Sequence record: MT446404.1
Length of the DNA: 51,754 bases
Direction: 5' to 3' (one strand)
From: Escherichia virus TH30
In this document: piece by piece, positions 1 to 31,109 of the stretch
How the letters are laid out: the number at the start of each line of letters is the position of its first letter
How positions within the stretch are numbered: position 1 is the stretch's first letter
Made by a program: the position numbers and the translations under genes
Notes under the pieces: generated by a model
What the model was told of the DNA's origin: nothing
What the model saw: only the letters and a program-made list of their open reading frames with translations
The model's database searches: none

Positions 1-427
1 TACGCGACTGGTTGCGTTAATCAAGTGGTTACATGTAGATATTTGTAATCGCGTGTATGCAATGGCGTTAGTTACATAAAATGGCTATCCGGAACAGCTA
101 TAGCTAGATGTAAATAGCGTGTATATCGTGTATATCATTTTTCTCGGAGGGTGCATTAGTGTATGCGTGATTAGATACTGTATAAATAACCATATTAGAA
201 ATTTATAAGAGGAACACTCTATAGAAGTAGTTACACGATATACACAGTAATATATATAATAATAATAATAAGAGTAAAAGGTTGATATATATAGATATTT
301 TAATGTAACTATCGCGTAACTAGGCGTAACAGCGCGTATATCATTTTCCGCGGATGAGATTGTATACATCGAGTTACATCGGTTACATGTATATCGTTGC
401 ATTTACTGCATTATGAGGATAAAATAA
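1..427. repeat. Left copy of exact 427-bp direct terminal repeat; AT-rich, dense in GTTAC/GTAAC and short direct repeats
   Basis: Window start matches 51328 onward; six-frame ORF 85..402 is identical in translation to ORF 51412..51729 (offset 51327). Confidence 0.9.
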
Positions 428-454
428 ACGCTCACTAACACTGGAGGATTCAAT

Positions 455-763
455 ATGTCTGGATTGCAAGCGTGGGATGCAAACGGGAACATCGTCGCAG
501 ACCTGGGAGATTACACGATTAAATTCATAGGACGATATTCGATGAGCATCGCCGACAACGCCTCGACCGCCTCAATATCCGTTGGCGGGATTGATGGCAA
601 TAACTCATTCGCCAATGTCATGAAAACAAATGGAACCACTGACGGGTCGATACGAACTGACATCGTGGCGAAGACTAAAAGCGGAGGTGTGGATCTGCTA
701 TACCTGCCAACTGGTAACTCCGGTGGCGTCACCGCAGATATTGAAGTTTACAAATTCATGTAA
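455..763 (+). CDS. hypothetical protein (102 aa)
   Basis: ORF with GGAG-type RBS just upstream; no recognisable motif. Confidence 0.4.
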   Translation: MSGLQAWDANGNIVADLGDYTIKFIGRYSMSIADNASTASISVGGIDGNNSFANVMKTNGTTDGSIRTDIVAKTKSGGVDLLYLPTGNSGGVTADIEVYKFM

Positions 764-772
764 GGGGGAATC

Positions 773-1423
773 ATGTCGGGATTTGAAGTCTTCAATAACG
801 CTGGCGTATCTGTGATTAACTCAGATCACAAACATTCGCTATTTGACTCAATATACAACCCAAGCGTTCCTTACGTCGGGGATTACGATCTTGGCACAAA
901 GTTCGGGAACCTTAGCGAGTTGGGATACATCAATACCATTGACAGGAGAAAGGACGGCTTTTTGTACTGGATACAGTTTACGCAGAATGACGCCTGGGCT
1001 TTCCCTGGATCTGATCTGTTCAAGGCTGGTAATTTCAGAGTAATAAGGACCAGCAGGACTAAGGAGATCACGTCTGGATACTGCGACGTGTTTGACTCTA
1101 ACGGTCAGTTGATTTGGAGTGCTGCGAGCGCTGGTACAATGCCACGCATCATGGGATTTCTTGATGTAGATCCTTCATTCGATCTCAACAATAACATAGC
1201 GTCAGTAACTCCAGGCTTTAATCCTTTCTTCTTGTGGGGCGCTTGCGCTGGCTCAATGAGTACGGATGGCGTAGTCGCTGGCTATTCCGGCAACCTCATG
1301 CGCTGGACCGGATCGCAACTACAAACGACGTGGATTAACCAGAACCAGAGAACATTCCAGGAGATTTATAACGGAAGGGGAAACATGAAAATCCCTTACG
1401 CAAAATTCCAGGGTTACAACTAA
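773..1423 (+). CDS. hypothetical protein (216 aa), possibly tail/adsorption-associated by position
   Basis: ORF 10 nt after the previous stop, convergent with the J-like fibre gene. Confidence 0.4.
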   Translation: MSGFEVFNNAGVSVINSDHKHSLFDSIYNPSVPYVGDYDLGTKFGNLSELGYINTIDRRKDGFLYWIQFTQNDAWAFPGSDLFKAGNFRVIRTSRTKEITSGYCDVFDSNGQLIWSAASAGTMPRIMGFLDVDPSFDLNNNIASVTPGFNPFFLWGACAGSMSTDGVVAGYSGNLMRWTGSQLQTTWINQNQRTFQEIYNGRGNMKIPYAKFQGYN

Positions 1424-1497
1424 CAGCACGAATAGCTAAAACAAATCCCAAGGAAGGGTATAGAATCACCTCATCCTAAACAAATGAGCAAACACCA

Positions 1498-1836
1498 ATG
1501 AAAAAATTAATCATCGTAGCGGCCCTCTTAGCGTCATTCAGTGCGAACGCTTTTAATGCAAATATCGGCTACTCAATTCCGGCAGCGCGCATCTCCCTGA
1601 CTGGTGAGGTGAGTTTCACTATTGACTGTGCCACGAAAGAAATTGAGATTCACGACTCAACTAACGAAATGTTCACTCGCCACATCAAAGCGAACAAAAG
1701 CGTGATGTGCTACAAGGACGATAATGTGTATAACGTAACATTCAAATATGAGCGCGGTAGCAAGGTAATCACTAACCTGCTCGCCACTCAGCCGAATAGA
1801 TTCCTTCCAAAACCTAACACCGTAGAAATGATGTAA
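1498..1836 (+). CDS. secreted protein with N-terminal signal peptide (112 aa)
   Basis: N-terminus MKKLIIVAALLASFSANA is a classic Sec signal with AXA cleavage site; no lipobox Cys. Confidence 0.5.
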   Translation: MKKLIIVAALLASFSANAFNANIGYSIPAARISLTGEVSFTIDCATKEIEIHDSTNEMFTRHIKANKSVMCYKDDNVYNVTFKYERGSKVITNLLATQPNRFLPKPNTVEMM

Positions 1837-1866
1837 AAAAAGGGGCCAATCGGCCCCTTAATTATT
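1834..1866. terminator. bidirectional rho-independent terminator between convergent genes
   Basis: A-run, GGGGCC-aatc-GGCCCC hairpin, T-rich tail. Confidence 0.7.
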
Positions 1867-4800
1867 ACCACAATCCCATCCTTACTCGTAACCTCCCGCT
1901 TGCGTCATAAACCTGAATGATGTTGTTGCTAATCACCATTCGACCAGTGCCAGCATTTCCGTTCAGTTCAAAGTTGCCATTCTTATCAATCGCCCACCCC
2001 TGACTTCCTTGAACGTAGTTGTTAGATTGTATCCTGTTACCAATCTTCGCGTTCGTGATTGAACCGTCCTGGATGAATGCGCTTTGCATAAACACTTGAT
2101 TATTTTCCACTACAAAAGGCAGTGACCACTGACCGGAACCACTACTAATCCCGTTACTGATCGCGAACCTTCCAGCGTCAAAAATCATCTGGCTGCGAAC
2201 ATTTCCACCGGAACCAACTAGCTCCATGCTCATTCCTGCCCCATACTCCATGCCGTTGTACTTAAGGCCAAGTTTAACGCCATACTGAACGCCAACCGAA
2301 CCTGCTGATGCGTATGACTCAAGTTTTTGCGTTAGCGCCGCCTCGTTATTACCAATCCTTGAGCTTAACGCTGTGTCAGCGGATGTTCTCGCATCAGTCT
2401 CCGTTGCTAGTGCTGTTTTAACTTCAGTGATAGAAGCCACAACCTCGTTATCGATCTGCGCCTTTAACTCAGTCATTGCCTCAACCCTTGCCTGCGTTTC
2501 ATCAGTGATAAGATTTACTGCCTGTGTGAATTGAGCCTTCCTATTTCCGCTCTCCTTCCTCATAATCTTAACATCAGCATCATTGGCAAGGGCATTCTCA
2601 AGTATTGATTCAGCCTGGTTCTGTATGCTAGACGCTGACTTATTCGCGTTTTCAAGTAAGTACTTGTAACCCTCAGATTGTTCTATATCAACCTTTATTT
2701 CACCAATAATTGCAGATACATCATCAGACGTCATACCTCTCACAAAGTCAGTCCACGGAGACTGATTACCTATTCTGTCTATCAATCTCGCCCTGTACCA
2801 AATTACCATTCCGGCTGGTAGCGTTGAGTGCCAGTATTCGTGCTGAGGATAAGGAATAAGTGTTAACAGTGATGCGTTGTCTGGATTGTATGTGCCGTCA
2901 CCGTTATCTTTAACTTGCTGCAATTCTATGTATGCCGTGTCGCCTGAATCGGCAGGGAATCCCCACTTAACCCTAATCCCAAAAACCTCGTCCGTACTGG
3001 CTGTCATGTTAATCGGCTTACTTGGTAGCCCGACCTTGCCAGTTAACCCAGCACTCACAACTCCAGACCATGGAGACGCATTATCGCCGCCTGAGATGCT
3101 CCTTACACGTACGTGATAATTGCCTGCATAAATCCCTTCAACCTCAACTTCCGAGTTTGCTGTGCGCGGTACGTTCATCCAGTTGCCGTTATCCTTGCGC
3201 CACTGCACATCGTACTTGCTCGCGTACTGAACCTTATCCCATCCGATGACCATCGTTTCAACGCTAAGCCCTTGGACAATTCTTGAATACGAGCTAACGC
3301 TGATATTCTTCGGAGGCTGCATATTGTCAGGGTCAACAATACTGGTTGGCCTGTCATCAATATTTACGCCGTAGTCGATTTCGTCGTACTTATTCGGATC
3401 GTATTCAACTGCCGTGATGCTGTATGTAAACTCATCATCTCCGTCGCCCTTCGTAATTGCCGTTACAACGTATTGCTGCAAAGCTATGTCAGTGCGGTCG
3501 ATTGCGAATACTGTGTTTGGTTGAACATCAAAGCCAAATCCAACGTTAAGCTCAATAGTTTTCCCGTCCGCAGACACCTTTGAAATTGTCCGGCGTACCG
3601 GATTTCCGTCAGCCTTGTTCACGATAATGAAATCACCAGCGCGCGCATCGACCTTAAAGTGTGTGAACACTTGCAGGCCAGACACTTCCATCACACGACC
3701 TGATAACGAAAGCGTCAGGTTACTTGACCAGAAGTTATCAGCGATTGCTACCACGTCGCCAATCATAGGAATCATACCCTCAAGTCCAGTTGCAAAACTC
3801 ACCGTCGTGCTGCGAAGGTTTGTCTTGAGAACCCAGCGGCCCCGTCGGTTCGCTTCACTGCGTCGAGTACATCCGATCGCTGTGATGCTTGTAGGGTTAT
3901 GCCCGAAGCGTAACGAAGCGTTAAGGTCGAACACCCCCTCGATGTCCTGGCTGTACATATTCTGCTCGTCGTCGAACGTGACGTTGCAGGTTGTGTACAT
4001 GCTTTTTTCACTTGCGAACGTATAGGCAAATGAGCCATCAACGACGTTATCGTTAGTGAAAATATACGACGCCTCTCTCGGTCGGTCGATGACAATTGAA
4101 AGGCTCTCGCCGTTCCAGAAGCTCATTCCACGGAATATTGAGCAAATGTCTCGCACAAGATTGTACGCTTCAACCTGAGATTGAATCACCACATCGCAAA
4201 GATAGCGCGGCTCTGTTCCGCCGTGACCGTCTGGTACTTTCTGATCGCAGTATTGACCAGCATCATAGAGTGACCACTTATCAACCGCGATCCCCAACTC
4301 ACGCTGGTCGAGTCCGTAGCGCTGATTGGTGATCAAATCATAAAGCACCCACGCTGGATTATTTGACCATGCTTTTTTAAAGCTCCCATCCCATGTGCCG
4401 CTATACTCTCGAAGCTCGGGATTGTAGTTACTCGGCACGTTAATGATTTTCCATTTCTTTTTCGTGCTAATGCTTGGGATCTGCGGGAATAGCTCGCTGT
4501 TAAACTCGACGTAAACAAGACCGGTCAGAGGGTAACGGAATTTAGCGTCAACCACTTCCGCGTAAGACTGAATGTTTATCGTGTCAACGACGCGCGCATC
4601 AGTTGAATCTGAAGTTACACGGCGGACTCGAAGCAATACCTGCTCATTAAACGCAGGAAGATCGATTCTCTTTGTCTTGTCATATCCGCTAATAGTCTTC
4701 CCGTCTATTGTGTCCAGCAACACCTCCTGATAGCTCCCGCCATCAACCGCCATGTCAACGGCCCACTTGACAACTACACCTACCATATCGCCGTTTTCTT

Positions 4801-5197
4801 TCGTGGTAACGCCTCGAGGCATCAGGATTTTTACGCGGACTGCCGATAGCTGCTTGTTAGTTACCGAGATCACGTAAGGCGTCGTTGTTTTCAATTCACG
4901 ACCTACAGTGAACTCAGCAGCCGTGTCGTTGAAGCCTTTGATGTAATCCTGCGTCTGCGTACCAGGTCGGAACTCAGCCGTTACGCCTTCATAGTTAACC
5001 TCACCGGAAGGTGCAATTACAGGAACATCATTAAGATACAAGTCCTTTAATGAGAAATTAGCATCAACCTCGCCATCACTAACAGCGAGCAAAACCTTAA
5101 TCTTGTTGATTGAGATCAGGTTATCTTCCATCTCCTGTGGGGTATGCGGCTTGCTGCTTCCACCCTTTCGGCCCGTCACTACACTATTTTTAATCAT
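1865..5197 (-). CDS. central tail fibre / host-specificity protein (lambda J-like, 1110 aa)
   Basis: Size and position downstream of I/K/L/M homologues; fibronectin-III-like internal segment. Confidence 0.75.
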   Translation of the reverse strand: MIKNSVVTGRKGGSSKPHTPQEMEDNLISINKIKVLLAVSDGEVDANFSLKDLYLNDVPVIAPSGEVNYEGVTAEFRPGTQTQDYIKGFNDTAAEFTVGRELKTTTPYVISVTNKQLSAVRVKILMPRGVTTKENGDMVGVVVKWAVDMAVDGGSYQEVLLDTIDGKTISGYDKTKRIDLPAFNEQVLLRVRRVTSDSTDARVVDTINIQSYAEVVDAKFRYPLTGLVYVEFNSELFPQIPSISTKKKWKIINVPSNYNPELREYSGTWDGSFKKAWSNNPAWVLYDLITNQRYGLDQRELGIAVDKWSLYDAGQYCDQKVPDGHGGTEPRYLCDVVIQSQVEAYNLVRDICSIFRGMSFWNGESLSIVIDRPREASYIFTNDNVVDGSFAYTFASEKSMYTTCNVTFDDEQNMYSQDIEGVFDLNASLRFGHNPTSITAIGCTRRSEANRRGRWVLKTNLRSTTVSFATGLEGMIPMIGDVVAIADNFWSSNLTLSLSGRVMEVSGLQVFTHFKVDARAGDFIIVNKADGNPVRRTISKVSADGKTIELNVGFGFDVQPNTVFAIDRTDIALQQYVVTAITKGDGDDEFTYSITAVEYDPNKYDEIDYGVNIDDRPTSIVDPDNMQPPKNISVSSYSRIVQGLSVETMVIGWDKVQYASKYDVQWRKDNGNWMNVPRTANSEVEVEGIYAGNYHVRVRSISGGDNASPWSGVVSAGLTGKVGLPSKPINMTASTDEVFGIRVKWGFPADSGDTAYIELQQVKDNGDGTYNPDNASLLTLIPYPQHEYWHSTLPAGMVIWYRARLIDRIGNQSPWTDFVRGMTSDDVSAIIGEIKVDIEQSEGYKYLLENANKSASSIQNQAESILENALANDADVKIMRKESGNRKAQFTQAVNLITDETQARVEAMTELKAQIDNEVVASITEVKTALATETDARTSADTALSSRIGNNEAALTQKLESYASAGSVGVQYGVKLGLKYNGMEYGAGMSMELVGSGGNVRSQMIFDAGRFAISNGISSGSGQWSLPFVVENNQVFMQSAFIQDGSITNAKIGNRIQSNNYVQGSQGWAIDKNGNFELNGNAGTGRMVISNNIIQVYDASGRLRVRMGLW

Positions 5198-5242
5198 GAT
5201 GTTTAGCCTTTCGTGCGATTTATCGAGGTTTCATTATACAGG

Positions 5243-5270
5243 CACAAAAAAACCCGCGCAAGGCGGGTTT
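5243..5270 (-). terminator. rho-independent terminator (minus strand) between I-like and J-like genes
   Basis: CCCGC-gcaag-GCGGG hairpin followed by U-run on the minus-strand transcript. Confidence 0.55.
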
Positions 5271-5273
5271 AAC

Positions 5274-5867: not shown

Positions 5868-6586
5868 TTATCTAACTCCTTATGCCTGCATATCATTACC
5901 GTGTGATCCTGGAACCATCCTGAGTAAATATCCGTCTTTGATAGCTTACCAAATGCGTGATGTAGGAGTTGATTATTGCCAAGGTAAATCCCTGCATGGT
6001 TCCATACATCAGATTGTAATTTCATGATAATCATGTCACCAGGCTCAGGATCCTTTCCGGTTTCAACAAAACCCTCTTTAATGTAGTTGTCCTGGTATAG
6101 ATTCTCACCATACTCAGGTTTCCACCACTCGTAAGGTTTTCTGAAGTCATTCAGGATTACGCCTTGCTCCTTGTGCCATGCCATAACCAGCCCCCAGCAA
6201 TCGAAAGAGCCAAGCGACCAGGGCCGACCAATCAGCGGCATGGCTTCTGGATGAACGATTCTCATGTCACCTTCCGGCAGGCTTACAATCACCCATGGCA
6301 CTTCCATCTCATTCAATACGCACAGGTCATGCGCGCTTGGTAAAGTGGTTGCCCCGTCGCCCGTATGGCTGTGCACGATGGCGATCGTGGTTAGGTCGGC
6401 GTCATCCTCAATGCAAGCGTACTGTACCGAATGAAGCTGAAAACCTTTTTCCGGTTCTGAGTGAACGTTGTCAACGGGCCAGTATTTCTGAACCCGCCCC
6501 TTTTGAGTCACCACGCCGCAACATTCATTGGGGTATACTGATTTCGCATGTTCGAAGATTGCCATCTTAATTTTGCCGTTAATCAT
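5861..6586 (-). CDS. tail assembly protein K-like with JAB/MPN and NlpC/P60-like parts
   Basis: HSHTGDG...SAHD resembles the JAMM HxH...D metal site; Cys-containing N-terminal part; synteny. Confidence 0.65.
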   Translation of the reverse strand: MINGKIKMAIFEHAKSVYPNECCGVVTQKGRVQKYWPVDNVHSEPEKGFQLHSVQYACIEDDADLTTIAIVHSHTGDGATTLPSAHDLCVLNEMEVPWVIVSLPEGDMRIVHPEAMPLIGRPWSLGSFDCWGLVMAWHKEQGVILNDFRKPYEWWKPEYGENLYQDNYIKEGFVETGKDPEPGDMIIMKLQSDVWNHAGIYLGNNQLLHHAFGKLSKTDIYSGWFQDHTVMICRHKELDKC

Positions 6587-15787: not shown

Positions 15788-16918
15788 TTACTTACGGAAG
15801 CGCGCCTGAGGATCAGGAATCGCGTCATCATCTTTGTCGCCTTGAGCGCCGTCAGCTTTATCGCCGTGCACTTTGATGCGTTGAGCAGCCATCTTATCAG
15901 AATCGCGAGCGATTTCATAAGACTGATTGATGTATGCGTCGGATTTTTCTTTCGCGTCAATACCGAGAACTTCGTCAATTACTGCCAGTTTGATAGCCTT
16001 CTCATCCAGGCCGTCGCACTTGATACCAAGGCCGGAAGCGAAAGTGAGAACAGCTCCCAGCGCGTCAGCTTTTTCTTTTGCTTCCGCTAGAGCCGCTTCG
16101 ATCTGGGCAGGAATGCCGTCAACCTTTGCTTTCAGCGCATCGCGCTCAGCTTGCAGGCCGTCAACTTTAGCACCAGCTTGCTCTGCTGCGGTTTGCAGCT
16201 TGCCGATGTGGTCAGCTACGTCTTTGGACACTTCCACTTCTGCTGAATCAATTTTAATTTTTACGGTCATGTTACTTTCCTCATTGGTTAATTGAACATG
16301 CTCATCATATTTAATTTCTTCTGAGCCGTCAAGGTTTAATCTGGCAATACCTGCGCGCCCGTGCTTTACCTTGGCAACGTGGTTAGGGACGATGTTCGTT
16401 TGCAGCACGTCAAACTCTTCCCACTCGTCGGTCATGACGGTTCCGTTAGGGAATTGCGCCTCCATCCCTTCCGCATCATCCTTGAAAACATACTCACCAG
16501 TATTGACATTTCCCCACCCTTCGCGGTGGATGTCATTAGTCTTGTAACCAACGGACAATTCTGCGGCGTCGCCACGCTTGGCGGATTCAATGGATTCCTT
16601 GTCGTGAATTACGATCGGACACTTCAAGCCGATTCCATCACGACGACCAGCGCCGGATAGTGAGCCAACAACAATCTTTCGTGCGTTGCTTGTGCTTACT
16701 TCCTGGTGACCTTCTACGATCGGCATACCGCGAAATAGCTCCATGGCCTCAGCCTTGAACACTTCGTTGGCTGGTCGGAACTCACGCTGCATTGTTCCAT
16801 CGGCACGCATATATTCCTGAATGCCGATTCGTGCAATGATTGGCTCATCGTGCATGAATCCGTTCGAGTCAAAGCGTGCTTTCAGTTGCACGCTATCGTA
16901 TCGTTGCTTAGTGGTCAT
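15788..16918 (-). CDS. scaffolding protein (possibly with prohead protease function, 376 aa)
   Basis: Ala/Glu/Lys-rich coiled-coil segment; upstream of capsid gene. Confidence 0.45.
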   Translation of the reverse strand: MTTKQRYDSVQLKARFDSNGFMHDEPIIARIGIQEYMRADGTMQREFRPANEVFKAEAMELFRGMPIVEGHQEVSTSNARKIVVGSLSGAGRRDGIGLKCPIVIHDKESIESAKRGDAAELSVGYKTNDIHREGWGNVNTGEYVFKDDAEGMEAQFPNGTVMTDEWEEFDVLQTNIVPNHVAKVKHGRAGIARLNLDGSEEIKYDEHVQLTNEESNMTVKIKIDSAEVEVSKDVADHIGKLQTAAEQAGAKVDGLQAERDALKAKVDGIPAQIEAALAEAKEKADALGAVLTFASGLGIKCDGLDEKAIKLAVIDEVLGIDAKEKSDAYINQSYEIARDSDKMAAQRIKVHGDKADGAQGDKDDDAIPDPQARFRK

Positions 16919-17397
16919 TTTTTACTCCCGTGATTTTTATGAAATTTATATACAGACTCCGCAACCTTTCTTGCAGAGATTGCGTCATCTTTTCTATCGT
17001 ATCTACCAAGGAATTTCTCCTTTTTGTCCACCCTTATTGAAGCAATCCATTTACTGGTTCTCTTACACCAGCTAACTCCAACAACTCCGCTTTTGTTTGA
17101 CTTGCTCATGGATACGTTTTTGCAATTCTCTTGTCTAGTTACGAGCCTTAGGTTTTCTATCCTGTTATCATCCCTAATATGGTTTATATGGTCAATCTCC
17201 ATTCCTTCAGGTATTTTACCATGGTGCATCTCCCATATTACCCTATGAGCCGGAGTTAGCCTACCCATAATCCTAACGTAAATATATCCATCCTCATCCT
17301 TCCAGCCAGCCACATCGCCAACTTTAACCCTTTTCGATGTCGGATTTTTCCAGATGAGATCTTTCTCTATATGATAAAAATAATCATTGAAATTCAT
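16915..17397 (-). CDS. HNH homing endonuclease (160 aa)
   Basis: EIDHINHIRDDNRIENLRLVTRQEN His-Asn-His motif; wedged between head genes with 4-nt overlaps. Confidence 0.85.
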   Translation of the reverse strand: MNFNDYFYHIEKDLIWKNPTSKRVKVGDVAGWKDEDGYIYVRIMGRLTPAHRVIWEMHHGKIPEGMEIDHINHIRDDNRIENLRLVTRQENCKNVSMSKSNKSGVVGVSWCKRTSKWIASIRVDKKEKFLGRYDRKDDAISARKVAESVYKFHKNHGSKK

Positions 17398-23272: not shown

Positions 23273-23329
23273 TTCTGCTTCCTCGTTCGTTTCGATGGGG
23301 TAACTATACAGCTACCCCGATTATGAGTT

Positions 23330-23346
23330 TTAACAAAAAGTGCTAT
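23330..23346 (-). promoter_or_regulatory. conserved 17-bp motif (minus-strand ATAGCACTTTTTGTTAA); upstream stop TAG embedded
   Basis: Followed on the minus strand by a hairpin with TATAGT and CATCGAAACGA before the next ATG. Confidence 0.55.
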
Positions 23347-23741
23347 CGCTTGTGATTTCGTGCATTCTTTTTCATTGCCGCGAAGGCGATAAAGCAGAAC
23401 ATCCCAGGCTCGGTGAATCGAAGTTTTCCATACTGGCGGCACATGCGGCGGAACTTACGCTTATCATTAAGGACGCCAGTTACGCGCTTCTCAGTTACAA
23501 CAAGGCGGCGCGGACCTTTTACTACCACGAAAGTGACTGCTGGGCCGCTTGCGAGATTCAGGTTAAACTTACTGCCTTTCTGGATGGCGTACCAAGTAAG
23601 GCCGTTATCCACATCAATAACATCAGCCACGTTGAGGTGACGGTTTGGCCTGCGTTTAGCTTCGTACACATGACCAACCTGAAAGTGATCTTCGAACAGA
23701 GGCGCTAACCCTGGATGTATTTTAACGCAACGTAATTTCAT
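23343..23741 (-). CDS. hypothetical basic protein (132 aa)
   Basis: ORF only. Confidence 0.4.
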   Translation of the reverse strand: MKLRCVKIHPGLAPLFEDHFQVGHVYEAKRRPNRHLNVADVIDVDNGLTWYAIQKGSKFNLNLASGPAVTFVVVKGPRRLVVTEKRVTGVLNDKRKFRRMCRQYGKLRFTEPGMFCFIAFAAMKKNARNHKR

Positions 23742-23957: not shown

Positions 23958-23958
23958 T

Positions 23959-23975
23959 TTAGCAATTCGTGCTAT
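23959..23975 (-). promoter_or_regulatory. conserved 17-bp motif (ATAGCACGAATTGCTAA), dyad TAGCA/TGCTA
   Basis: Immediately after stop of 23976..24608. Confidence 0.55.
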
Positions 23976-24608
23976 TTACCATGGTAATCCATCTTCCCAC
24001 TCGTAAACATCAACCTCTGGAACTTGTGAGCTAATACCGCAAGCCTCAGCAACCGCCAGGACGCCGCCATAAATATCACCATTGACGAGGTGAACGCTAT
24101 GCTCCTGATACTTTTTATAATCAGGGAAATGCGATTCCTTGATGCGAATGTAACCACGGCTATCGCCAGCGAAAGTCTTGCCATCCATGAACAGGCGGAC
24201 CAGGGTAACATCGTGACCATCTTCAACGAGTTGGATCACTTCATCGGGGAAGCCGCCATCAGTGCAAACAAAGCAGAAGCCCTCATCACACAGTCGGATA
24301 TGTTCGCTCATCAATTTGCCGAACTGCTGATTGCCAAAAAGCGGCTTGACCACTGTTTCGCTAATCCAGATCATGAACTCACGGCAGGTCTTGCCACCGA
24401 GAAAGCCCTGAGGCTGCTCTTTCTGATCGCGGTCGTCGTATGCTGTGATGAACTTTGAGAAAGACTTGGCACCAAGGATGGATGCTGCAATCTCAAACAT
24501 CGGACGCTTGAAGCTAGTCGGGATGCAATTGTAATCTGCTGCAAGCGCGTTGCCGATCGTGTCTTTACCAACCGAAGCTGGGCCGTTGAGGATGATAATT
24601 TTTGACAT
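23976..24608 (-). CDS. P-loop nucleotide kinase (dNMP-kinase-like, 210 aa)
   Basis: Walker A GPASVGKDT at N-terminus. Confidence 0.6.
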   Translation of the reverse strand: MSKIIILNGPASVGKDTIGNALAADYNCIPTSFKRPMFEIAASILGAKSFSKFITAYDDRDQKEQPQGFLGGKTCREFMIWISETVVKPLFGNQQFGKLMSEHIRLCDEGFCFVCTDGGFPDEVIQLVEDGHDVTLVRLFMDGKTFAGDSRGYIRIKESHFPDYKKYQEHSVHLVNGDIYGGVLAVAEACGISSQVPEVDVYEWEDGLPW

Positions 24609-24657
24609 TTTTATATTCCTGAGTAGTGGGCGCGATGTGCGCCCGTTAAGGTTAGTT

Positions 24658-25275: not shown

Positions 25276-25306
25276 TTTAACTTCCTTTCGTGTGGTTTAT
25301 GTGGGG

Positions 25307-25315
25307 ATTATACCA
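25307..25315 (-). promoter_or_regulatory. extended -10 TGGTATAAT inside a hairpin, downstream of conserved motif
   Basis: Plus-strand attatacca; about 35 nt upstream of ATG at 25275. Confidence 0.45.
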
Positions 25316-25333
25316 GTCAGGATGAATCCCCTT

Positions 25334-25350
25334 TTAACAAAGCGTGCTAT
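25334..25350 (-). promoter_or_regulatory. conserved 17-bp motif (ATAGCACGCTTTGTTAA), upstream stop TAG embedded
   Basis: Stop of 25347..26150 is the TAG of the motif. Confidence 0.55.
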
Positions 25351-26150
25351 TTGATATAAAACTGAGCCACTACGCCGCCATCAGGATTTACTATTGCGTA
25401 TGCGTCACCGGGCATTGCCTTGGCATTCATAACCTTACCAATTCTCTTTGCTTCCCATCGGCAATCGCCTTTTAATCCAGATACGAAAGCATCCTGCGTG
25501 ATGTAAATAAGTCTCGGACTACCGACAAAACTCTCACTGATTTCATACTCATACTCGCAACCATTGATAAATTCGTTGCCGTTAACATGGTAGCAAACTG
25601 CCACCTTGCGATCGCGTGCAGATTCGCATTCACCCACCGCCCATACGTGACGATTGCCATAACCGTAACCGCCGCTGCGTGGTTCCATTTTCGCGGTTGA
25701 CATCGTGATGCCATGGCTACCGATGAAACTTTCGCCAAAAGTGAACTTTCCGTTCTTCGTCAATTCATCTTCGACGCTGTAGGTGTCATCCTTAACGGTT
25801 TTCCCTGGGCCAGTCGCAAGCTCGCTTACGAACGCATCGACCGTGTTGTGGCACGGATCGCCATTGTACTTAGGAAAATCCTTGAGCAATTGCTCGTACG
25901 CTTCGTGCACCAGATTACCTACAACTTCTTTGATAGCCTGCTCAATATGCTCAGCGAGAATCGAAGGTGCAGAAATTTGATGTTTTTGAGTCGATTCTAA
26001 CGCCTTTAAACGCGCTTGTAACGACTCAATTTCTTGCTTATGCATCGCGTAGGATACCCACGCTCCATCGTCGCAGGCTTGCATTCCGACACCGTGAATG
26101 TTGACGCTGGTTGCTACTGATACAGGGATATAACGTCTGATGCTTTTCAT
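25347..26150 (-). CDS. hypothetical protein (267 aa), largest uncharacterised early protein
   Basis: ORF only; N-terminal coiled-coil-like segment. Confidence 0.5.
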   Translation of the reverse strand: MKSIRRYIPVSVATSVNIHGVGMQACDDGAWVSYAMHKQEIESLQARLKALESTQKHQISAPSILAEHIEQAIKEVVGNLVHEAYEQLLKDFPKYNGDPCHNTVDAFVSELATGPGKTVKDDTYSVEDELTKNGKFTFGESFIGSHGITMSTAKMEPRSGGYGYGNRHVWAVGECESARDRKVAVCYHVNGNEFINGCEYEYEISESFVGSPRLIYITQDAFVSGLKGDCRWEAKRIGKVMNAKAMPGDAYAIVNPDGGVVAQFYIK

Positions 26151-26218
26151 ATTTAATTCCTCAGTTGGTTTGTGTTCACTTGACAGGAGACACTATAGCT
26201 AATGTCTCCGAGCAAGTT

Positions 26219-26235
26219 TTAACAAAAAGTGCTAT
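26219..26235 (-). promoter_or_regulatory. conserved 17-bp motif, upstream stop TAG embedded
   Basis: Adjacent hairpin GGAGACA...TGTCTCC. Confidence 0.55.
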
Positions 26236-26450
26236 TTAATGACTCCGGCGCGAATTGCCATCTCAAGCGTGATGTACTGCTTAGCCGTCAGCGTTGAGTG
26301 ATAGGTGACTACTCCAGCCTTAATTGCTTTTACCAACTGATCCTGTGTGATGCGTGAGATGTTAATAATGCCGTATCCGCCACCAGTACGCAGAACCACA
26401 TCGCCGACCGCACAAAACTCAACGCCCTTGCTGTTAGTGTAGACTTGCAT
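26232..26450 (-). CDS. hypothetical protein (72 aa)
   Basis: ORF only. Confidence 0.4.
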   Translation of the reverse strand: MQVYTNSKGVEFCAVGDVVLRTGGGYGIINISRITQDQLVKAIKAGVVTYHSTLTAKQYITLEMAIRAGVIK

Positions 26451-26640
26451 TTTTTAACCCCTTAACCTGATGCGCCGTTCCCGTGCGAATGGCTGTTACT
26501 AAGTGAGTGAATACTGACGCCTGGCTTAAAGCCTTAATCCATCGACCGTATTGTGGGTAGTATACGTATCCAGTGCCACATGCTACAGCAAACCACATGC
26601 CGTCACGCATAAAAACTATTGGCTTCAACGGAATCATGAT
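26434..26640 (-). CDS. hypothetical protein (trimmed start)
   Basis: Overlapping ORF chain; start uncertain. Confidence 0.25.
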   Translation of the reverse strand: MMIPLKPIVFMRDGMWFAVACGTGYVYYPQYGRWIKALSQASVFTHLVTAIRTGTAHQVKGLKNASLH

Positions 26641-26807
26641 TATTGTTCCTTCAAGTATAGGTAAATAACGTAAGATACAGTAAGTGGCCACAGTGCAGAA
26701 ACAAACAATAAATCGTACCATTTATTCTCGCTATTGCGCACATTGTGTGCGATGGCATAAACCGGAAGTGCGCCCAGGATGTAAAGCACGATGCATAAAA
26801 TAATCAT
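26640..26807 (-). CDS. small two-helix membrane protein (about 55 aa)
   Basis: MIILCIVLYILGALPVYAI... hydrophobic; start overlaps upstream stop. Confidence 0.3.
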   Translation of the reverse strand: MIILCIVLYILGALPVYAIAHNVRNSENKWYDLLFVSALWPLTVSYVIYLYLKEQ

Positions 26808-27232
26808 AAGTAACCCTTCCCTACAGTTTCGCCAACTTCGCGTGATGCCTTTAATTTGTTCCAGAAATCGAACGGGCCGACTGGCTCCCACGCTTTCGGT
26901 TTTCCTGGCTCATTCCACCAACCTAGAACGCAGTCGCTACCGTACGCCGTTCCCATTGGTTTACCGTCGCTGTAGTGGTCCTTGAACACGCGGTCAAGCT
27001 CATCCCCACCAACCTTGATTGATTTGATTTCAAAGCCATAACTCTTCTTCATCACCAAATCATGATCATAAAAGAACCCGTCTACAACGATAGGGTAAGA
27101 ACCAGGATCGCGCGGACTTGTATCTTTCTCATGCAGCTTGCGATAGTTTGGATCGGCATAGATGTTTGGGTTAAGTAAACGAACTCTCATTTGTAATTCC
27201 TCTGATTGGTTGTTTTGCTTCAATAAGGCCAC
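26804..27232 (-). CDS. hypothetical protein (142 aa)
   Basis: ORF only. Confidence 0.4.
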   Translation of the reverse strand: MALLKQNNQSEELQMRVRLLNPNIYADPNYRKLHEKDTSPRDPGSYPIVVDGFFYDHDLVMKKSYGFEIKSIKVGGDELDRVFKDHYSDGKPMGTAYGSDCVLGWWNEPGKPKAWEPVGPFDFWNKLKASREVGETVGKGYL

Positions 27233-27257
27233 TATATCAAATGGCCTTGCGGAAGGT

Positions 27258-27274
27258 TTAACAAAAAGTGCTAT
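27258..27274 (-). promoter_or_regulatory. conserved 17-bp motif, upstream stop TAG embedded
   Basis: Position inferred from stop of 27271..27459. Confidence 0.5.
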
Positions 27275-27459
27275 TCGAATTTTTCGTTATGGTGAATAAC
27301 CTCAGCCACGTAAATCTTTCTCAAGAACCACTCCTGCGTTCCGGTGGAAGTGATTTTGTGCATCTTCCACACCTGGTGCCAAGGCAGGTATTCCATATCC
27401 TCAGCCAGTGCCGTAAAAGCCTTGCCGCAGTGAGTGTAAATCGTGGTGTAAGTGGTCAT
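27271..27459 (-). CDS. hypothetical protein (62 aa)
   Basis: ORF; leader GTATACTTCTTTCATACCAAC shared with the leader of 41883..42116. Confidence 0.4.
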   Translation of the reverse strand: MTTYTTIYTHCGKAFTALAEDMEYLPWHQVWKMHKITSTGTQEWFLRKIYVAEVIHHNEKFE

Positions 27460-27514
27460 TTCGTATCTCCCTTGTTGGTATGAAAGAAGTATACCAGTCA
27501 GGGAGAATATCGTT

Positions 27515-27531
27515 TTAGCAATTCGTGCTAT
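27515..27531 (-). promoter_or_regulatory. conserved 17-bp motif (ATAGCACGAATTGCTAA)
   Basis: Followed by CTGACTGGTATACT extended -10-like element. Confidence 0.5.
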
Positions 27532-27626
27532 TCCACCACAACCAGGAAGATTATCACCAGAAACAAAAGCACCCAGGATAGCCCGACAAGAAGCAATTGC
27601 AGCACGTCAACTAATTTGAACTTCAT
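27528..27626 (-). CDS. 32-aa hydrophobic micro-protein (MKFKLVDVLQLLLVGLSWVLLFLVIIFLVVVE)
   Basis: Below the ORF-track size cut-off; ATGA overlap with upstream stop; stop TAG inside the motif. Confidence 0.35.
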   Translation of the reverse strand: MKFKLVDVLQLLLVGLSWVLLFLVIIFLVVVE

Positions 27627-27838
27627 AGCACCTCAACCTCATCCTCTGCAAATGGCCAGTCGCCAGGAGCCATTCCATTCCTGCTTAGCGCCGGAAGGAA
27701 GTCAGCGTCAACCATGTAAAGGGTTTCGAACTCACCTTCATACCTCCAGGCCGTCGCCACCACTGGCAGCTTGCTTGAGTCAACGCCTCGATAAGGTGAC
27801 TTGATGATGCGGATCTTAATCATTTCTTCATTGTTCAT
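27623..27838 (-). CDS. small acidic protein (about 71 aa from MNNEEM)
   Basis: ORF, trimmed start. Confidence 0.35.
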   Translation of the reverse strand: MNNEEMIKIRIIKSPYRGVDSSKLPVVATAWRYEGEFETLYMVDADFLPALSRNGMAPGDWPFAEDEVEVL

Positions 27839-28034
27839 TGCGGCGCTCCATGTAGTCAGCCATTTTGATAAGGTGCTCGCCCATTGCGCGGACGGTAGCC
27901 GGATCTTGCATCGGGAATGCTCCAGAGTCATCATCAATCACGATTTCGACAGTGACATTATCGACATTGGTCATCGTGTCAATCCAGCAATCGTCATCGT
28001 CCATATCCTGGAAGCGCTTGCGATCTGTGATCAT
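27828..28034 (-). CDS. small acidic protein (68 aa), distant relative of the tandem family
   Basis: C-terminal helix ATVRAMGEHLIKMADYMER resembles the family C-terminus. Confidence 0.35.
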   Translation of the reverse strand: MITDRKRFQDMDDDDCWIDTMTNVDNVTVEIVIDDDSGAFPMQDPATVRAMGEHLIKMADYMERRNEQ

Positions 28035-28255
28035 AAAACCCCCTTCTCAGCGCGGCGGGCCGCTTCCATCAGGTGACATGCCAGTTGGCGCGCCTGGTCA
28101 GGCGTGTAAAGCATGTAACTGCTTGGGTATGACTCATCATGAGGATTGAAGTCAAGTCGTACCTTGAAAGTCACACGATCATTATTGTGAATCTTCACAG
28201 CCTCAATCTCGGCCTGCTCGTTGTAGTCGTCTGCGATGCGTACCTTGGTACTCAT
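28031..28255 (-). CDS. small acidic protein, paralogue family member 4 (74 aa)
   Basis: C-terminus YTPDQARQLACHLMEAARRAEKGVL. Confidence 0.5.
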   Translation of the reverse strand: MSTKVRIADDYNEQAEIEAVKIHNNDRVTFKVRLDFNPHDESYPSSYMLYTPDQARQLACHLMEAARRAEKGVL

Positions 28256-28321
28256 AATTTACCCCTTGGTTGATTGTTTCACTTCAATGAGTGCACTATA
28301 GCAAATGCACTCACGTCAGTT

Positions 28322-28338
28322 TTAACAAAAAGTGCTAT
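28322..28338 (-). promoter_or_regulatory. conserved 17-bp motif, upstream stop TAG embedded
   Basis: Stop of 28335..28622 is the TAG of the motif. Confidence 0.55.
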
Positions 28339-28622
28339 CGCTCATCTTCCCTGGAGCATCCTTTGCCGCAACCATGGCGACCAACTTCCACGATGCCGAC
28401 TCCGCTTAAGCCGATGTATTCCTGACCAGTGTCCTTATCGGTGATGACGTATATCGCTCTGACGTTCTCGTATGCCAGGTCATCCCTGAACTCCTGAATC
28501 TTCACAACCTGGACGCGATCGTTTACGTTTACTGGCATCATCTGCCGAGCGTCGGAGCTAACCCTTGTATCTGAGTCACAACCAGCCAGCGCCAGGGCTG
28601 CTAATAAAATTAGTTTCTTCAT
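28335..28622 (-). CDS. lipoprotein (95 aa), candidate superinfection-exclusion protein
   Basis: Signal plus lipobox MKKLILLAALALAGC. Confidence 0.5.
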   Translation of the reverse strand: MKKLILLAALALAGCDSDTRVSSDARQMMPVNVNDRVQVVKIQEFRDDLAYENVRAIYVITDKDTGQEYIGLSGVGIVEVGRHGCGKGCSREDER

Positions 28623-28819
28623 TCGATAATCCTCAATAGTTTCTCTTTGCGATGCGGTTCGCCGGACTTATTCAGCCAGTAGCGCGCCTGGGAAAGCTGG
28701 CTGGCATGGGCCACTGTCACCCACCAGAATAATGCTACCCGCTTTTGGACTGCATACCACTTGACCGGATGACCTAAGGCGGTCGTCGTGTCAACCAATA
28801 CGATCCTGAATTTATTCAT
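28619..28819 (-). CDS. hypothetical basic protein (about 66 aa from MNKFRIV)
   Basis: ORF trimmed to the ATG overlapping the upstream stop. Confidence 0.3.
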   Translation of the reverse strand: MNKFRIVLVDTTTALGHPVKWYAVQKRVALFWWVTVAHASQLSQARYWLNKSGEPHRKEKLLRIIE

Positions 28820-29030
28820 CGACTTCTGCCTCCACTTCATCAGCCGCCTTGATGAGTGCCGCCGCCAGTTCACGCGCCTGCTCTGCTGTGTAGGTCATAC
28901 CTGTACCATCCGCCCGAGAATCCGGTAAAAGGTCCAGGTGCACGCGCTTACGCATCTTGCCAAACGGAACCTTGATTACTGAGATTTCTGTTTCCTGATT
29001 CCAGGATGAGTTAACTCGAATATCTCTCAT
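28812..29030 (-). CDS. small acidic protein, paralogue family member 3 (72 aa)
   Basis: C-terminus YTAEQARELAAALIKAADEVEAE. Confidence 0.5.
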   Translation of the reverse strand: MRDIRVNSSWNQETEISVIKVPFGKMRKRVHLDLLPDSRADGTGMTYTAEQARELAAALIKAADEVEAEVDE

Positions 29031-29224
29031 TGCTTTTCCGCCTCTTCCGCTACTTTAATGAGCGCCTCCGCCAACTTACGTGCTTGTTCCGGCGTGTAAT
29101 GAGCTATGGCAAAGCTATCCCCGTCGCTGTCTGTTTCAGTAAGACTTACCACGCCGTCATAATAGATTGAGGTTGACACCTCGGTGCTTACGCCTAAAAA
29201 ATCTTCGAAGATTACAATCTCCAT
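29027..29224 (-). CDS. small acidic protein, paralogue family member 2 (65 aa)
   Basis: C-terminus HYTPEQARKLAEALIKVAEEAEKQ. Confidence 0.5.
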   Translation of the reverse strand: MEIVIFEDFLGVSTEVSTSIYYDGVVSLTETDSDGDSFAIAHYTPEQARKLAEALIKVAEEAEKQ

Positions 29225-29226
29225 AA

Positions 29227-29439
29227 TTATTTCTTCTCCGCTTCATCTGCTGCCAGGATTAACGCTGCCGCTAATTTGCGCGCGTCATCAGGTGTATAGT
29301 GCATCATGCTTACATCGCAATCGTCAGGATCGAAGTCAATGGAGACTACAGCCTTGACTACTCCAGTCCGATTGGTTAGCACGCTAACCTCAGCGGCATC
29401 ACCAACCACATCCTCAATGCGTAAAATTTCCATAATCAT
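29227..29439 (-). CDS. small acidic protein, paralogue family member 1 (70 aa)
   Basis: C-terminus HYTPDDARKLAAALILAADEAEKK. Confidence 0.5.
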   Translation of the reverse strand: MIMEILRIEDVVGDAAEVSVLTNRTGVVKAVVSIDFDPDDCDVSMMHYTPDDARKLAAALILAADEAEKK

Positions 29440-29490
29440 TTCCTCTTTGTTGTCGATAGGGTAATCATAGCTGACTACCCGATTTATTGT

Positions 29491-29507
29491 TTAGCAATTC
29501 GTGCTAT
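29491..29507 (-). promoter_or_regulatory. conserved 17-bp motif, upstream stop TAG embedded
   Basis: Stop of 29504..30055 is the TAG of the motif. Confidence 0.55.
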
Positions 29508-30055
29508 TCACCGTTCAGGAGAGCTTTCGCTTTCCGGTAGAACTGGATGGCCTTCTCCACCTCATCGGCATCATAGCCATGGATTGTTGTCTGCGGTGGC
29601 ACGTAGTGAGAACGTCGCGCGTCGGATCGGTATTGGTTGCACCATCTGTACACGCCTCGTTCATCCATTCCCACCAGGGCCGGATGCACATAAATCTTAT
29701 CGCCAATGAGGCAAACAATTCCCGCCTCCTGTAGTGCTGGGATGATGTTATTTGTCAGGTCATGCATGATCCCTTCGCGACCGACGAATGGCTGGACCTT
29801 TCGGATTGCCTCGTATAGAGATCGAATGCCAGCAACTCCCTTCCCATTGCAGCACTGGCGGCTAATCCTGCTCACTACGACGCCGTATTTGTAGCTCAAC
29901 TTGACGCACAGCATCTCTTCGGCGCTGGGCCAGAACTTGAATGATTGACGGTATCCATTGGCATTGATTGCCACACGAAGTGGCGGCAGGTTATCTTGCC
30001 TGGCGACTTCCATCACCTTTTCATCGGTCAATTTATCTTCGTCGAAATTAAACAT
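29504..30055 (-). CDS. 183-aa protein sharing N- and C-terminal segments with the 527-aa P-loop protein at 35589..37172
   Basis: MFNFDEDKL...DNLPPLRVAINANGYRQS and GIRSLYEAIRKVQPF...CLIGDKIYVHP match both ends of the larger protein. Confidence 0.55.
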   Translation of the reverse strand: MFNFDEDKLTDEKVMEVARQDNLPPLRVAINANGYRQSFKFWPSAEEMLCVKLSYKYGVVVSRISRQCCNGKGVAGIRSLYEAIRKVQPFVGREGIMHDLTNNIIPALQEAGIVCLIGDKIYVHPALVGMDERGVYRWCNQYRSDARRSHYVPPQTTIHGYDADEVEKAIQFYRKAKALLNGE

Positions 30056-30591
30056 TAGTTAGTATCCTTAATCATTTCATGGTAACGGGCCAGGGCAATG
30101 AGAGCGCCTTCTTTCTGCTCTCCTTTCAGGTCGATGACGTTTGGTGTGATCTTGAGCAGACGAGCCTTGAACCTTTCAATAGCTGCCGCTTCTTTCTCAA
30201 CATCGGCAGTCTTTCGTTTGGTTGGCTTAAGTGCCCCAGGCTCAAGCTGGATTAACAGGTTCTTATCAGCGCCGTCGCCATCCGCCTTGCGTGCTACAGT
30301 TTCCTCTCCTGACGCCAGCCAGATAAAGCGATGCTTGACGTGCATATCAATATCCCGAAGCTCCTGCATTCTTGCTGCGGTGTTATAGATGTATGAACTT
30401 TTAAGCCCTGCGATCTCACGCCCAGGAGTCATGTACTCCCCCGTCACCTCGTCCAGTATTTCATCTGGATAATCATGACCATTGACCAGGTTGAATATCT
30501 TGCGAACCGGAACTACGCACAGCTTCTTGTCGGACTTAATTGCCTGGCGTACCATCTCGCGAATCACATCACCCAATGTTACCTTATCCAT
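30055..30591 (-). CDS. hypothetical protein (178 aa), first gene of the leftward early block
   Basis: ORF only. Confidence 0.45.
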   Translation of the reverse strand: MDKVTLGDVIREMVRQAIKSDKKLCVVPVRKIFNLVNGHDYPDEILDEVTGEYMTPGREIAGLKSSYIYNTAARMQELRDIDMHVKHRFIWLASGEETVARKADGDGADKNLLIQLEPGALKPTKRKTADVEKEAAAIERFKARLLKITPNVIDLKGEQKEGALIALARYHEMIKDTN

Positions 30592-31109
30592 ACTACCACC
30601 TCATTTGATTGTTGCGTTTAAGTGAGGTCATTATGATGAGAGTTAACGCGTAAGTCAACCGTAATCGCATGTAAAAATCAGGTCGGGAAACATTTCTGCC
30701 ATGTAGGCCTTGCCACACCTGATGTAAGTAGGCGGTATATCGTGTAACGCATCCTGAAAGGTGATTGCCTATATATGGCCTCATTACCCTGGCGGAATGG
30801 TCATCTTATATAGTAGTGGGAGATATTATCAAATTTGATGGAGGTTGCGCCTAGATAGTCGTTACACAGTATACATAGATATATATAATAATAATAATAT
30901 AGATAAATGGTTGTTATATATAGATATTTTATTGTAACTAATGCGTAAAACAGCGTATGCCGCGTATGCTCATGCCAAATCGTTACACGGCATACATTGG
31001 CTATACATGCGTTACGCACAATTACGCGTATGCGCTGGAAAACGTGTGGCGGGAAAATCCTACCAGGCGATCAGGGATCAGATCTCACCCCATCATTCCC
31101 CCCTCCAAT

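Follow-up and report, generated by a model that had tools for sequence, protein, structure and literature searches.

Escherichia virus TH30 (sequence record MT446404.1; the whole stretch of 51,754 nt is called the window here) carries two copies of a non-coding, AT-rich module of about 160 nt, one in each of two divergent intergenic gaps. We read these modules as candidate paired, cis-acting, origin-like sites of replication initiation. We give this reading an even chance and no better. An origin is favoured over an array of regulator sites because a helicase and a helix-turn-helix (HTH) protein are conserved together with the module, because the AT-rich cores of the two copies are the two least stable duplexes of the genome, and because the sites lie 200-300 nt behind promoters. 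By BLAST the window is a T1-like coliphage, with TH21, TH27 and ESCO41 (Nouzillyvirus, Drexlerviridae) as its nearest relatives. T1 itself is a classical T phage and a notorious laboratory and industrial contaminant. The result is two precise, family-wide candidate sites of about 160 nt each and two candidate trans-factors, all testable by standard assays.

Anatomy and conservation of the paired module

Positions 1-427 of the window repeat exactly at 51328-51754, which leaves a genome unit of 51327 nt. We read the identity as the overlap of a circular assembly; it falls inside the recE promoter and gap A, and an apparent third copy of the module at 51568-51655 is therefore copy A seen twice. 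One genome unit holds two copies, neither of them at an assembly-independent terminus. An earlier note on this DNA had called the left-hand region a terminal repeat; this is not supported, since the T1-type end falls at about 31161, beside the internal copy. Gene order in the window is collinear with that of T1 (open reading frame (ORF) map and T1 annotation). Gap A is syntenic with the T1 cor/recE gap at 29851-30377, as judged by the T1 annotation and by Pfam and PHROG matches to RecE-like, Erf and flanking genes, and variable genes (455-1836) lie on its right side. Gap B is syntenic with T1 48675-48836 plus 1-538, which contains the annotated physical left end of T1 (repeat_region 1-2800). 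The features of the two gaps are as follows.

51291-51327 plus 1-454, no strand: gap A, 491 nt, divergent intergenic, between recE (minus strand, start 51290) and a plus-strand gene at 455
30592-31305, no strand: gap B, 714 nt, divergent intergenic, between two arms of small early ORFs
1-427, no strand: end overlap of the assembly, exact identity; not a T1-type terminal redundancy, the T1 end mapping to about 31161
229-392, plus strand: module copy A, containing the most conserved 100-nt bin of the genome; GTTACA 230-235, AT core about 241-304, TGTAAC 304-309, GCGTA at 314, 324 and 334 (10-nt phasing), GTATATC at 336, GTTACA at 373 and 382
248-304, no strand: AT core A, at least 88% A+T; second least stable 60-bp duplex, -56.1 kcal/mol
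30861-31015, plus strand: module copy B, recognized by alignment to copy A and shared layout; GTTACA 30861-30866, AT core 30870-30937, TGTAAC 30933-30938, GCGTA at 30943, 30953 and 30962, GTTAC at 30982 and 31011
30870-30937, no strand: AT core B, least stable 60-bp duplex of the genome, -55.5 kcal/mol
110-148, plus strand: sub-repeat CGTGTATATC twice, then ATTTTTCTCGGA; related to 316-354 and 30724-30762
50250-51290, minus strand: RecE-like exonuclease, first gene of the recE-erf(-ssb) operon (Pfam/PHROG)

Sequence 229-345 recurs at 30861-30975. The similarity of about 80% that the earlier note had reported was reproduced: 241-328 and 30870-30957 are 81% identical, ungapped, over 88 nt, and the best local alignment of A and B holds 86 identities in 95 aligned positions, with z = 23-26 against shuffles preserving base composition and AT-core position. 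The copies were also aligned with MAFFT (200-400 against 30830-31030). The collinear layout extends beyond the note's approximately 100 bp to about 160 nt. Measured from the centre of the AT core, GTTAC is found at -42 in both copies; GTAAC at +33 in A and +31 in B; GCGTA at +42, +52 and +62 in A and at +40, +50 and +59 in B; and two further GTTAC at +101 and +110 in A and at +79 and +108 in B. Packing with GTTAC and GTAAC had been claimed for both regions; it is strong in gap A (8 copies vs 1.16 expected, Poisson P = 3e-5) and weak in gap B (5 vs 1.74 expected, P = 0.03). Both copies are non-coding, as the note had supposed from the Tyr-rich, low-complexity peptides of the ORFs that cross them. 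These ORFs translate (TA)n and (AAT)n tracts into Tyr/Ile-rich strings (...YSYYYYYIYY...), and their frame is not conserved, since TA/AAT indels of 1-4 nt break it in the A copies of the relatives T145P1 and A110b.

The AT cores were sought in whole genomes as 50-nt windows of at least 88% A+T, without prior assumptions on position. The 11 genomes scanned represent five lineages: this window and its Nouzillyvirus relatives ESCO41, TH21 and TH27; T1 (Tunavirinae); TLS (Tempevirinae); KP36 (Webervirus); and 12397V, T145P1, A110b and SU57 (Braunvirinae). Every genome (11 of 11) contains exactly two such stretches, one per syntenic gap. In the window, 60-bp duplexes have a mean stability of -83.4 +/- 5.0 kcal/mol and the next lowest value after the cores is -66.2 kcal/mol; both cores lie about 5.5 standard deviations from the mean. 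Each copy thus includes a candidate for the discrete AT-rich DNA-unwinding element (DUE) that characterizes origins. Short specific repeats flanking the DUE, often phased, are a second such characteristic, and both copies have GCGTA three times at a spacing of 9-10 nt. Core A lies upstream of recE by about 240-300 nt in all genomes, and the distance and orientation of module A to recE are kept in every genus; in KP36, where the whole recE block is inverted, AT core A is inverted along with recE. Some 20-30 kb separate copy A, upstream of the recE-erf operon, from the place of the T1-type end; core B is found 100-370 nt from the T1-type left end across the genomes. Among more distant loci in IMG/VR, 44 have a single AT core (at least 86% A+T), mostly 1.5-5.6 kb upstream of the helicase gene; no AT core was found in seven IMG/VR loci having a full 10-kb flank upstream of that gene.

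Compared with three Braunvirinae genomes, about 25% of the window genome is alignable, at about 73% identity. The most conserved 100 nt of the entire genome in this comparison is bin 201-300 (0.94), above the best coding bins. This, together with the short, protein-site-like repeats around the AT core, bears out the earlier view of the region as a duplicated platform. Of 105 phage records that match the A-type module, 98 do so at 90% identity or more. T1 gave no BLAST match to the window module, yet has an A/B pair of its own. The two copies of one genome align at 84-91% identity over 79-127 nt (z = 23, 7.9, 12.6, 38 and 23), whereas the same gap is barely alignable between genera (z = 1.0-6.5); copies A and B are accordingly read as evolving in concert. 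No match to the module was found in plasmids or E. coli genomes, and a pattern scan for it in IMG/VR mostly returned the same isolates. Homology to relatives was also observed to end at the module edges, at about 393-405 in gap A and at about 30872 and 31040 in gap B, and the flanking genes (455-1836 and 30592-30870) to be exchanged between phages, which places the modules at mosaic junctions.

An unbiased search for enriched 7-mers, comparing the gaps with the rest of the genome or locus, returned gap-specific words that are common to A and B of one genome and differ by clade. The words are given below with their counts in gaps A and B and elsewhere; the remaining IMG/VR clades carry distinct words of their own.

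Window, GTATATC: 5 + 1 in gaps A + B, 4 elsewhere, P = 2e-9
Window, AGTTACA: 4 + 1 in gaps A + B, 7 elsewhere, P = 1.4e-6
T1, TGTTACA: 4 + 2 in gaps A + B, 0 elsewhere, P = 6e-15
KP36, ATCTTAC: 10 + 3 in gaps A + B, 6 elsewhere, P = 4e-21
TLS, TGTTCAC: 2 + 2 in gaps A + B, 4 elsewhere, P = 5.6e-6
L061, TGGGACA (gap B only): 9, with 1 elsewhere in the locus

The clearest example of the architecture is L061 (IMG/VR 3300048919_000084), a distant relative, in which two forward copies of TGGGACA, an AT core (6412-6461) and two reverse copies follow one another, with more doublets outside, for nine sites within about 260 nt on either side. In the window clade, 13 aligned copies share the invariant elements ...GTTG.TATATA...TGTA..., with three phased (G/T)CGTA words after them. 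Of 59 cores, 41 have a GC-containing inverted pair of 7 nt or more on their flanks, as compared to 21 of 59 for a direct-repeat control; in 21 of the 59 the pair beats 95% of shuffles, many of these loci being related.

Co-conserved proteins and a proposed mechanism of initiation

Phage 12397V, in which module A is 96% identical to that of the window, served as the reference for co-conservation: 72 window ORFs have homologues there, with a median identity of 53%. Typical values are those of TerS (57%), TerL (49%), the portal protein (57%), RecE (51%), Erf (44%) and the primase (46%). Only two proteins reach at least 85%, a DUF3987 helicase (92-93%) and a Cro/YdaS-like HTH protein (91%). The same pattern is repeated in T145P1, A110b, SU57, IME542, IME253 and the IMG/VR loci L029-L033. 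T1, TLS and KP36 differ from the window in their modules; there the helicase is 57, 71 and 65% identical and the HTH protein 53, 52 and 62%, near background. In a further locus, L037, the HTH protein is 70% and the helicase 85% identical, and the module is not alignable. Module A, the helicase gene and the HTH gene lie 10-36 kb apart; a single recombination tract therefore cannot explain their joint conservation. The co-conservation pattern disfavours TerS and RecE as the specificity partner of the module and indicates the helicase, the HTH protein, or both. The genes concerned are listed here.

35589-37172, plus strand: DUF3987 helicase, 527 aa; 90-93% identical in module-sharing phages, 57-71% otherwise; candidate trans-factor
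46108-46581, plus strand: Cro/YdaS-like HTH protein, 157 aa, overlapping the primase start; 87-92% identical in module-sharing phages, 52-62% in others; candidate site-specific binder
46553-47578, plus strand: primase with Zn-ribbon, related to the N-terminus of P4 alpha (blastp E = 4e-12); 43-48% identical, without co-conservation with the module
29504-30055, minus strand: 'mini-helicase', 183 aa, an accessory gene, second downstream of module B

For the helicase, whose mechanical ORF starts 20 codons too early (TTG 35529), Pfam yields DUF3987 only. A link at the level of sequence to P4 alpha or to any PDB chain was sought and not found; only the primase matches alpha. The AlphaFold model of the helicase (pLDDT 89) returned MCM2-7 or archaeal MCM chains as all of the top 50 Foldseek matches, with E down to 4e-5. 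The modelled protein resembles an MCM-type AAA+ ATPase that ends in a lid and a winged-helix domain, the latter at aa 448-527. The mini-helicase consists of the N-terminal 45 aa of the helicase joined to its C-terminal lid and winged helix, without the ATPase, and its nearest fold is the lid and winged-helix part of ORC/Cdc6. It is present in Nouzillyvirus and Braunvirinae and absent in T1, TLS, KP36 and A110b, which rules it out as a universal partner of copy B; where present, it could compete with the helicase or regulate it. Across subfamilies only two further proteins are co-conserved with the module, helicase and HTH protein, both from small ORFs, 34009-34248 (plus strand, phrog_4448) and 38896-39069 (minus strand, DUF7244), at 78-86% vs a background of about 50%. 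In the comparison with 12397V, two small ORFs reach about 80-84%. Against an overall protein identity of about 50%, the joint conservation of these three unlinked islands (module, helicase, HTH protein) suggests that matched sets are under selection, which would be relevant to phage mosaicism and to the engineering or disabling of T1-like phages.

The data show the anatomy, conservation and pairing of the modules, their co-conservation with the two proteins and the fold similarities; from these we infer protein binding, melting, initiation and any division of labour between the copies, in the following order of events. The AT core of about 60-70 nt would be the DNA-unwinding element. The sites around it, namely the GTTACA/TGTAAC inverted pair at about -42 and +32 and the three helically phased GCGTA to the right, would be bound by the Cro-like HTH protein, which is encoded just upstream of the primase, by the C-terminal winged helix of the helicase, or by both. 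The core would then melt, the helicase would be loaded and the P4-alpha-like primase would prime synthesis. Melting may be aided by negative supercoiling from the early promoter, which is placed 200-300 nt ahead and points away. Both copies may fire, or one may serve as an auxiliary site or arrest forks, a role that has been suggested for SPP1 oriR or P4 crr.

Several observations weigh against an origin. The HTH protein could be purely a transcription factor, the exact sequence of the AT core is more conserved than a passive unwinding element requires, and the fixed polarity and distance to the downstream operon would suit a regulatory element equally. Some of the identity across subfamilies could reflect recent horizontal exchange instead of purifying selection. 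The inverted pair is not universal, being absent in T1 copy B and in Braunvirinae copy B, and in window copy B it is only 6 nt long (P = 0.48). On the protein side, the TM-scores of the helicase to MCM are low (about 0.33), the winged-helix fold is generic and the P4 alpha origin-binding domain is not among the top matches listed; the reading helices of the winged helix and of the HTH protein were both found to vary when compared with motif class, with no clean swap in 4 genera and 18 IMG/VR loci, so that neither stands out as the reader of the sites. GC skew was tried for origin mapping, and its extremes (30602, 46073 and 1392) fell at coding-strand switches; since the skew tracks the coding strand, it is uninformative.

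A broader proposition, which we regard as possible but doubtful, is that all Drexlerviridae replicate from a matched, concertedly evolving pair of modules, with the HTH protein and an MCM/Orc-like initiator-helicase recognizing the sites and with copy-specific roles. The helicase would then be loaded through its C-terminal winged helix. One copy adjoins the packaging end; the other, before the RecE-Erf-SSB operon, would be a switch like SPP1 oriR to recombination-dependent synthesis of concatemers, and in some lineages the stand-alone mini-helicase near copy B would modulate origin firing. Were this so, a bacteriophage would initiate replication with archaeal/eukaryotic-type parts, and the passage of module, helicase and HTH protein between subfamilies, unlinked but selected together, would have an explanation.

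Predicted promoters, a probable terminus element and rival explanations

Outside the modules themselves, the neighbourhood contains predicted promoters that point away from the cores and, in gap B, a separate repeat array.

51324-51351, minus strand: predicted sigma70-type recE promoter, TTGATT-16-TATAGT, directed away from module A
30630-30658, minus strand: predicted sigma70-type promoter, TTGACT-17-CATAAT, of the leftward early operon, directed away from module B
31100-31215, minus strand: TTGCA/TGCAA array, candidate pac/terminus element, in gap B only

At the position of the window recE promoter, T1 has TTGACT...TATAAT and TLS has P51. The leftward operon of gap B comprises a DUF7174 gene, the mini-helicase and the genes that follow. 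The authors of the TLS study reported three sigma70 promoters only, namely P01, P51 upstream of recE and P57 upstream of the HTH-primase operon (PMC11447400 Table S1); P01 and P51 each have a TLS AT core 235-250 nt behind them. By these predictions the modules sit behind early promoters that point away from them. A sigma70 promoter or UP element inside the module was considered and rejected as not above chance: a scan of gap A gave 3 matches vs 2.7 expected from shuffles, with no conserved -35/-10 pair inside the module; the candidate spacers contain (AAT)n tracts whose length varies between copies; and better promoters are available 200-300 nt away. A different class of elements was noted throughout the window. 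A 21-nt T1-like element, ATAGCACnnnTTGnTAAAA (the 'DR' of TLS), occurs in many copies upstream of genes (23958-23982, 27514-27538, 29490-29514, 42173-42197, 43487-43511, 47632-47656, 23326-23350, 26215-26239, 28318-28342, 39670-39694, 46075-46099 and 31228-31246), some followed by a TGCTATTAT-type extended -10 and by CATCGAAACGA (family D13: 31261, 32843, 33213 and 35116). Together these look like a phage-specific class of promoter.

TTGCA and TGCAA occur 7 times in 136 nt (31090-31225), where 0.36 copies would be expected, and a G-run comes after them. Gap A has no counterpart of this array, which is found about 225 nt to the right of core B. Nucleotide 1 of T1 aligns to about 31161 of the window, inside the array; the stretch is collinear between T1 and the window, and the ESCO41 and XT34 records start at the equivalent of 31207. 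Several GenBank relatives were seen to begin their records in this region. The literature places the T1-like pac site in the untranslated region (UTR) of gap B (PMC7718038, PMC11447400) and the genome ends of TLS in gap B (PMC11447400). The array and G-run are probably the pac/terminus region, and this likely element can now be set apart from the duplicated module.

The earlier note had offered a packaging site, an origin or a regulator array for the module. Packaging is now disfavoured, and of the remaining two we favour the origin. The strongest competitor, which we hold as a tentative possibility well short of the origin, is a regulatory hub or enhancer, in which the repeats would be operator or activator sites for the HTH protein, perhaps with host nucleoid proteins on the AT core, coordinating two of the few host-type early promoters, those of the recE operon and of the early arm of small ORFs, without a role in replication initiation. 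Such a hub would account for the uniform polarity of the copies and for the similar spacing, about 240-300 nt in every genus, between the core and the gene that opens a leftward operon, with KP36 core A inverted together with recE. It would also suit the co-conservation of the HTH protein with the module, including the case of L037, where the module is not alignable and the HTH protein is down to 70% with the helicase still at 85%, and the fact that two of only three TLS sigma70 promoters adjoin AT cores. The module of the window clade further contains a perfect IHF core, TATCAACCTTTTA; as a general feature an IHF site was rejected, however, being absent in T1, TLS and KP36 and mismatched in window copy B. 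The sites of a Cro/CI operator array overlap or abut core promoters, whereas here they are 200-300 nt upstream of the predicted -35/-10 elements, and the module has no conserved promoter of its own, its (AAT)n tracts varying in length. Given the co-conserved HTH protein, regulation from a distance is conceivable. The hub also leaves unexplained why the helicase is co-conserved and the primase, whose gene overlaps that of the HTH protein, is not, and why the cores are the most meltable sites. An unlikely alternative, in our view, is that the module is a recombination linker, its homology mainly serving exchange between co-infecting T1-like phages, with gene conversion between copies; high identity would then stem from frequent transfer and not from a biochemical role. 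The ends of homology at the module edges, the highly mosaic genes flanking them, the phage-encoded RecE and Erf, and the concerted evolution of the copies all agree with this. Exchange at the edges could, however, be a side effect of any conserved element, and a linker does not explain two extreme AT cores at fixed positions in 11 of 11 genomes with a layout kept while the sequence differs, the clade-specific repeated words, or the co-conservation with two unlinked genes.

That the module is a packaging signal, a platform for TerS (pac) at which copy B initiates cutting and copy A is secondary or cryptic, appears highly improbable. Copy B does lie near the equivalent of the T1 left end, at a distance of about 225 nt, in the UTR to which the pac site has been assigned, and some pac sites, such as that of SPP1, span 200-300 bp with separate binding and cutting parts. 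A pac site is nevertheless expected to be a single functional site at the end of the first headful with a specificity that co-varies with TerS; the module has two copies, of which A, before recE, lacks a TTGCA array, travels with recE and is not at a genome end, and TerS is 55-57% and TerL 47-49% identical where module A is 90-96% identical. The TTGCA array is alignable between T1 and the window, the module is not, and TerS at 55% identity to T1 is at ordinary background. Classical work on T1 describes a single pac-initiated packaging series. Least probable of all is a product of the module itself, either a small structured RNA or a Tyr-rich peptide. The ORFs at 85-402 and 30801-31019 (both minus strand) are open, hypothetical proteins are annotated over the region in some GenBank records, and copy A folds slightly better than shuffles (z = -2.2 and -2.5). 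The peptides are nonetheless low-complexity translations of (TA)n/(AAT)n, and the frame is shifted by the indels of the T145P1 and A110b A copies. An RNA element was rejected because the folding of copy A is marginal and that of copy B the same as shuffles (z = -0.3 and +0.7); other copies do not conserve the inverted repeat behind the fold of copy A, and Rfam 15 gave no relevant match at E <= 1 in gap A or gap B.

Two other sets of repeats were encountered in the window. Three related stretches (17116-17251, 39337-39472 and 41031-41166; 67-71% identity) lie in ORFs of about 160 aa (16915-17397, 39142-39618 and 40836-41321), which are probably HNH/AP2-type endonuclease paralogues, judging by their position in T1 and ESCO41. 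At 48019-48254, three tandem 90-nt repeats (66-80% identity) lie inside a 439-aa tail-fibre-like gene (47674-48993).

Comparison with known replication and packaging systems

No prior description of the module was found in the accessible literature, although the Rtp and T1 (Roberts et al. 2004) genome papers may contain an earlier remark on the AT-rich regions. Recent genome papers report no origin for T1-like phages, and neither origin nor iterons were found in TLS or SU57 (PMC11447400, PMC7718038). For phage Sfin-2, GenSkew placed an 'origin' at about 201 nt, on skew alone (PMC10716491); this would correspond approximately to the position of core B, assuming that the record starts at the T1-type left end. 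A resemblance of TGTAACTA to Tus/Ter was judged a chance partial match.

The T1-like UTR has been described with a pac site and with 21-nt ATAGCAC...TTG.TAAAA repeats (PMC11447400, PMC7718038). The pac region and the 'DR' elements of T1 and TLS are in the same large UTR as the module, yet the module is neither: DR elements occur upstream of many genes, and the pac-side TTGCA array is single-copy and separate from the module.

In phage-inducible chromosomal islands (PICIs), including the Staphylococcus aureus pathogenicity islands (SaPIs), the origins (pri-rep-ori) have a geometry like that of L061, with two forward sites, a core and two reverse sites, and like the GTTACA...TGTAAC pair of the window. 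Unlike the modules, a PICI origin is single-copy and adjoins pri-rep, whereas in the window two copies lie at a distance from the helicase gene; other protein families are involved, and function is demonstrated for the PICIs only.

P4 offers another parallel, having two separated cis regions, ori and crr, with the same iteron, TGTTCACC (NC_001609), and in ori the iterons flank an AT-rich stretch (NC_001609). The window primase shares homology with the alpha N-terminus (E = 4e-12). In TLS the gap word TGTTCAC equals the first seven bases of the P4 type-1 iteron TGTTCACC and is found in both gaps, with two adjacent copies of CGTGAACA in gap B, although the enrichment is modest (2 + 2 vs 4 elsewhere). 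Alpha is, however, one polypeptide, whereas the window primase and helicase are separate genes about 10 kb apart and the helicase has no sequence similarity to alpha. The window words GTTACA and GCGTA differ from the iteron, and crr, made up of two 120-bp repeats, has no extreme AT core.

A further precedent is SPP1, which has two origins, each made of repeats and an AT-rich DUE and both bound by gp38 (PMC6316719). Its oriR has been proposed to arrest forks and to bring about a switch to concatemeric replication via an exonuclease, a single-strand annealing protein and SSB (PMC6316719, PMC3485210). Like the window, SPP1 is a pac-type (headful) siphovirus with two similarly organized origin-like sites, about 13 kb apart in SPP1, and in both phages no compositional anomaly of the genome is stronger than the AT-rich islands. 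Window copy A, which directly precedes the RecE-Erf-SSB operon, recalls the oriR switch. The differences are that there is no sequence homology; that gp38, the loader gp39 and the DnaB-type gp40 are unrelated to the DUF3987 helicase and the HTH protein; that oriL lies inside gene 38, whereas both window modules are intergenic; and that binding and initiation are demonstrated for SPP1 and proposed for the window modules. The architecture of the paired modules is of a known kind, of which the family of elements and its candidate protein partners are new members.

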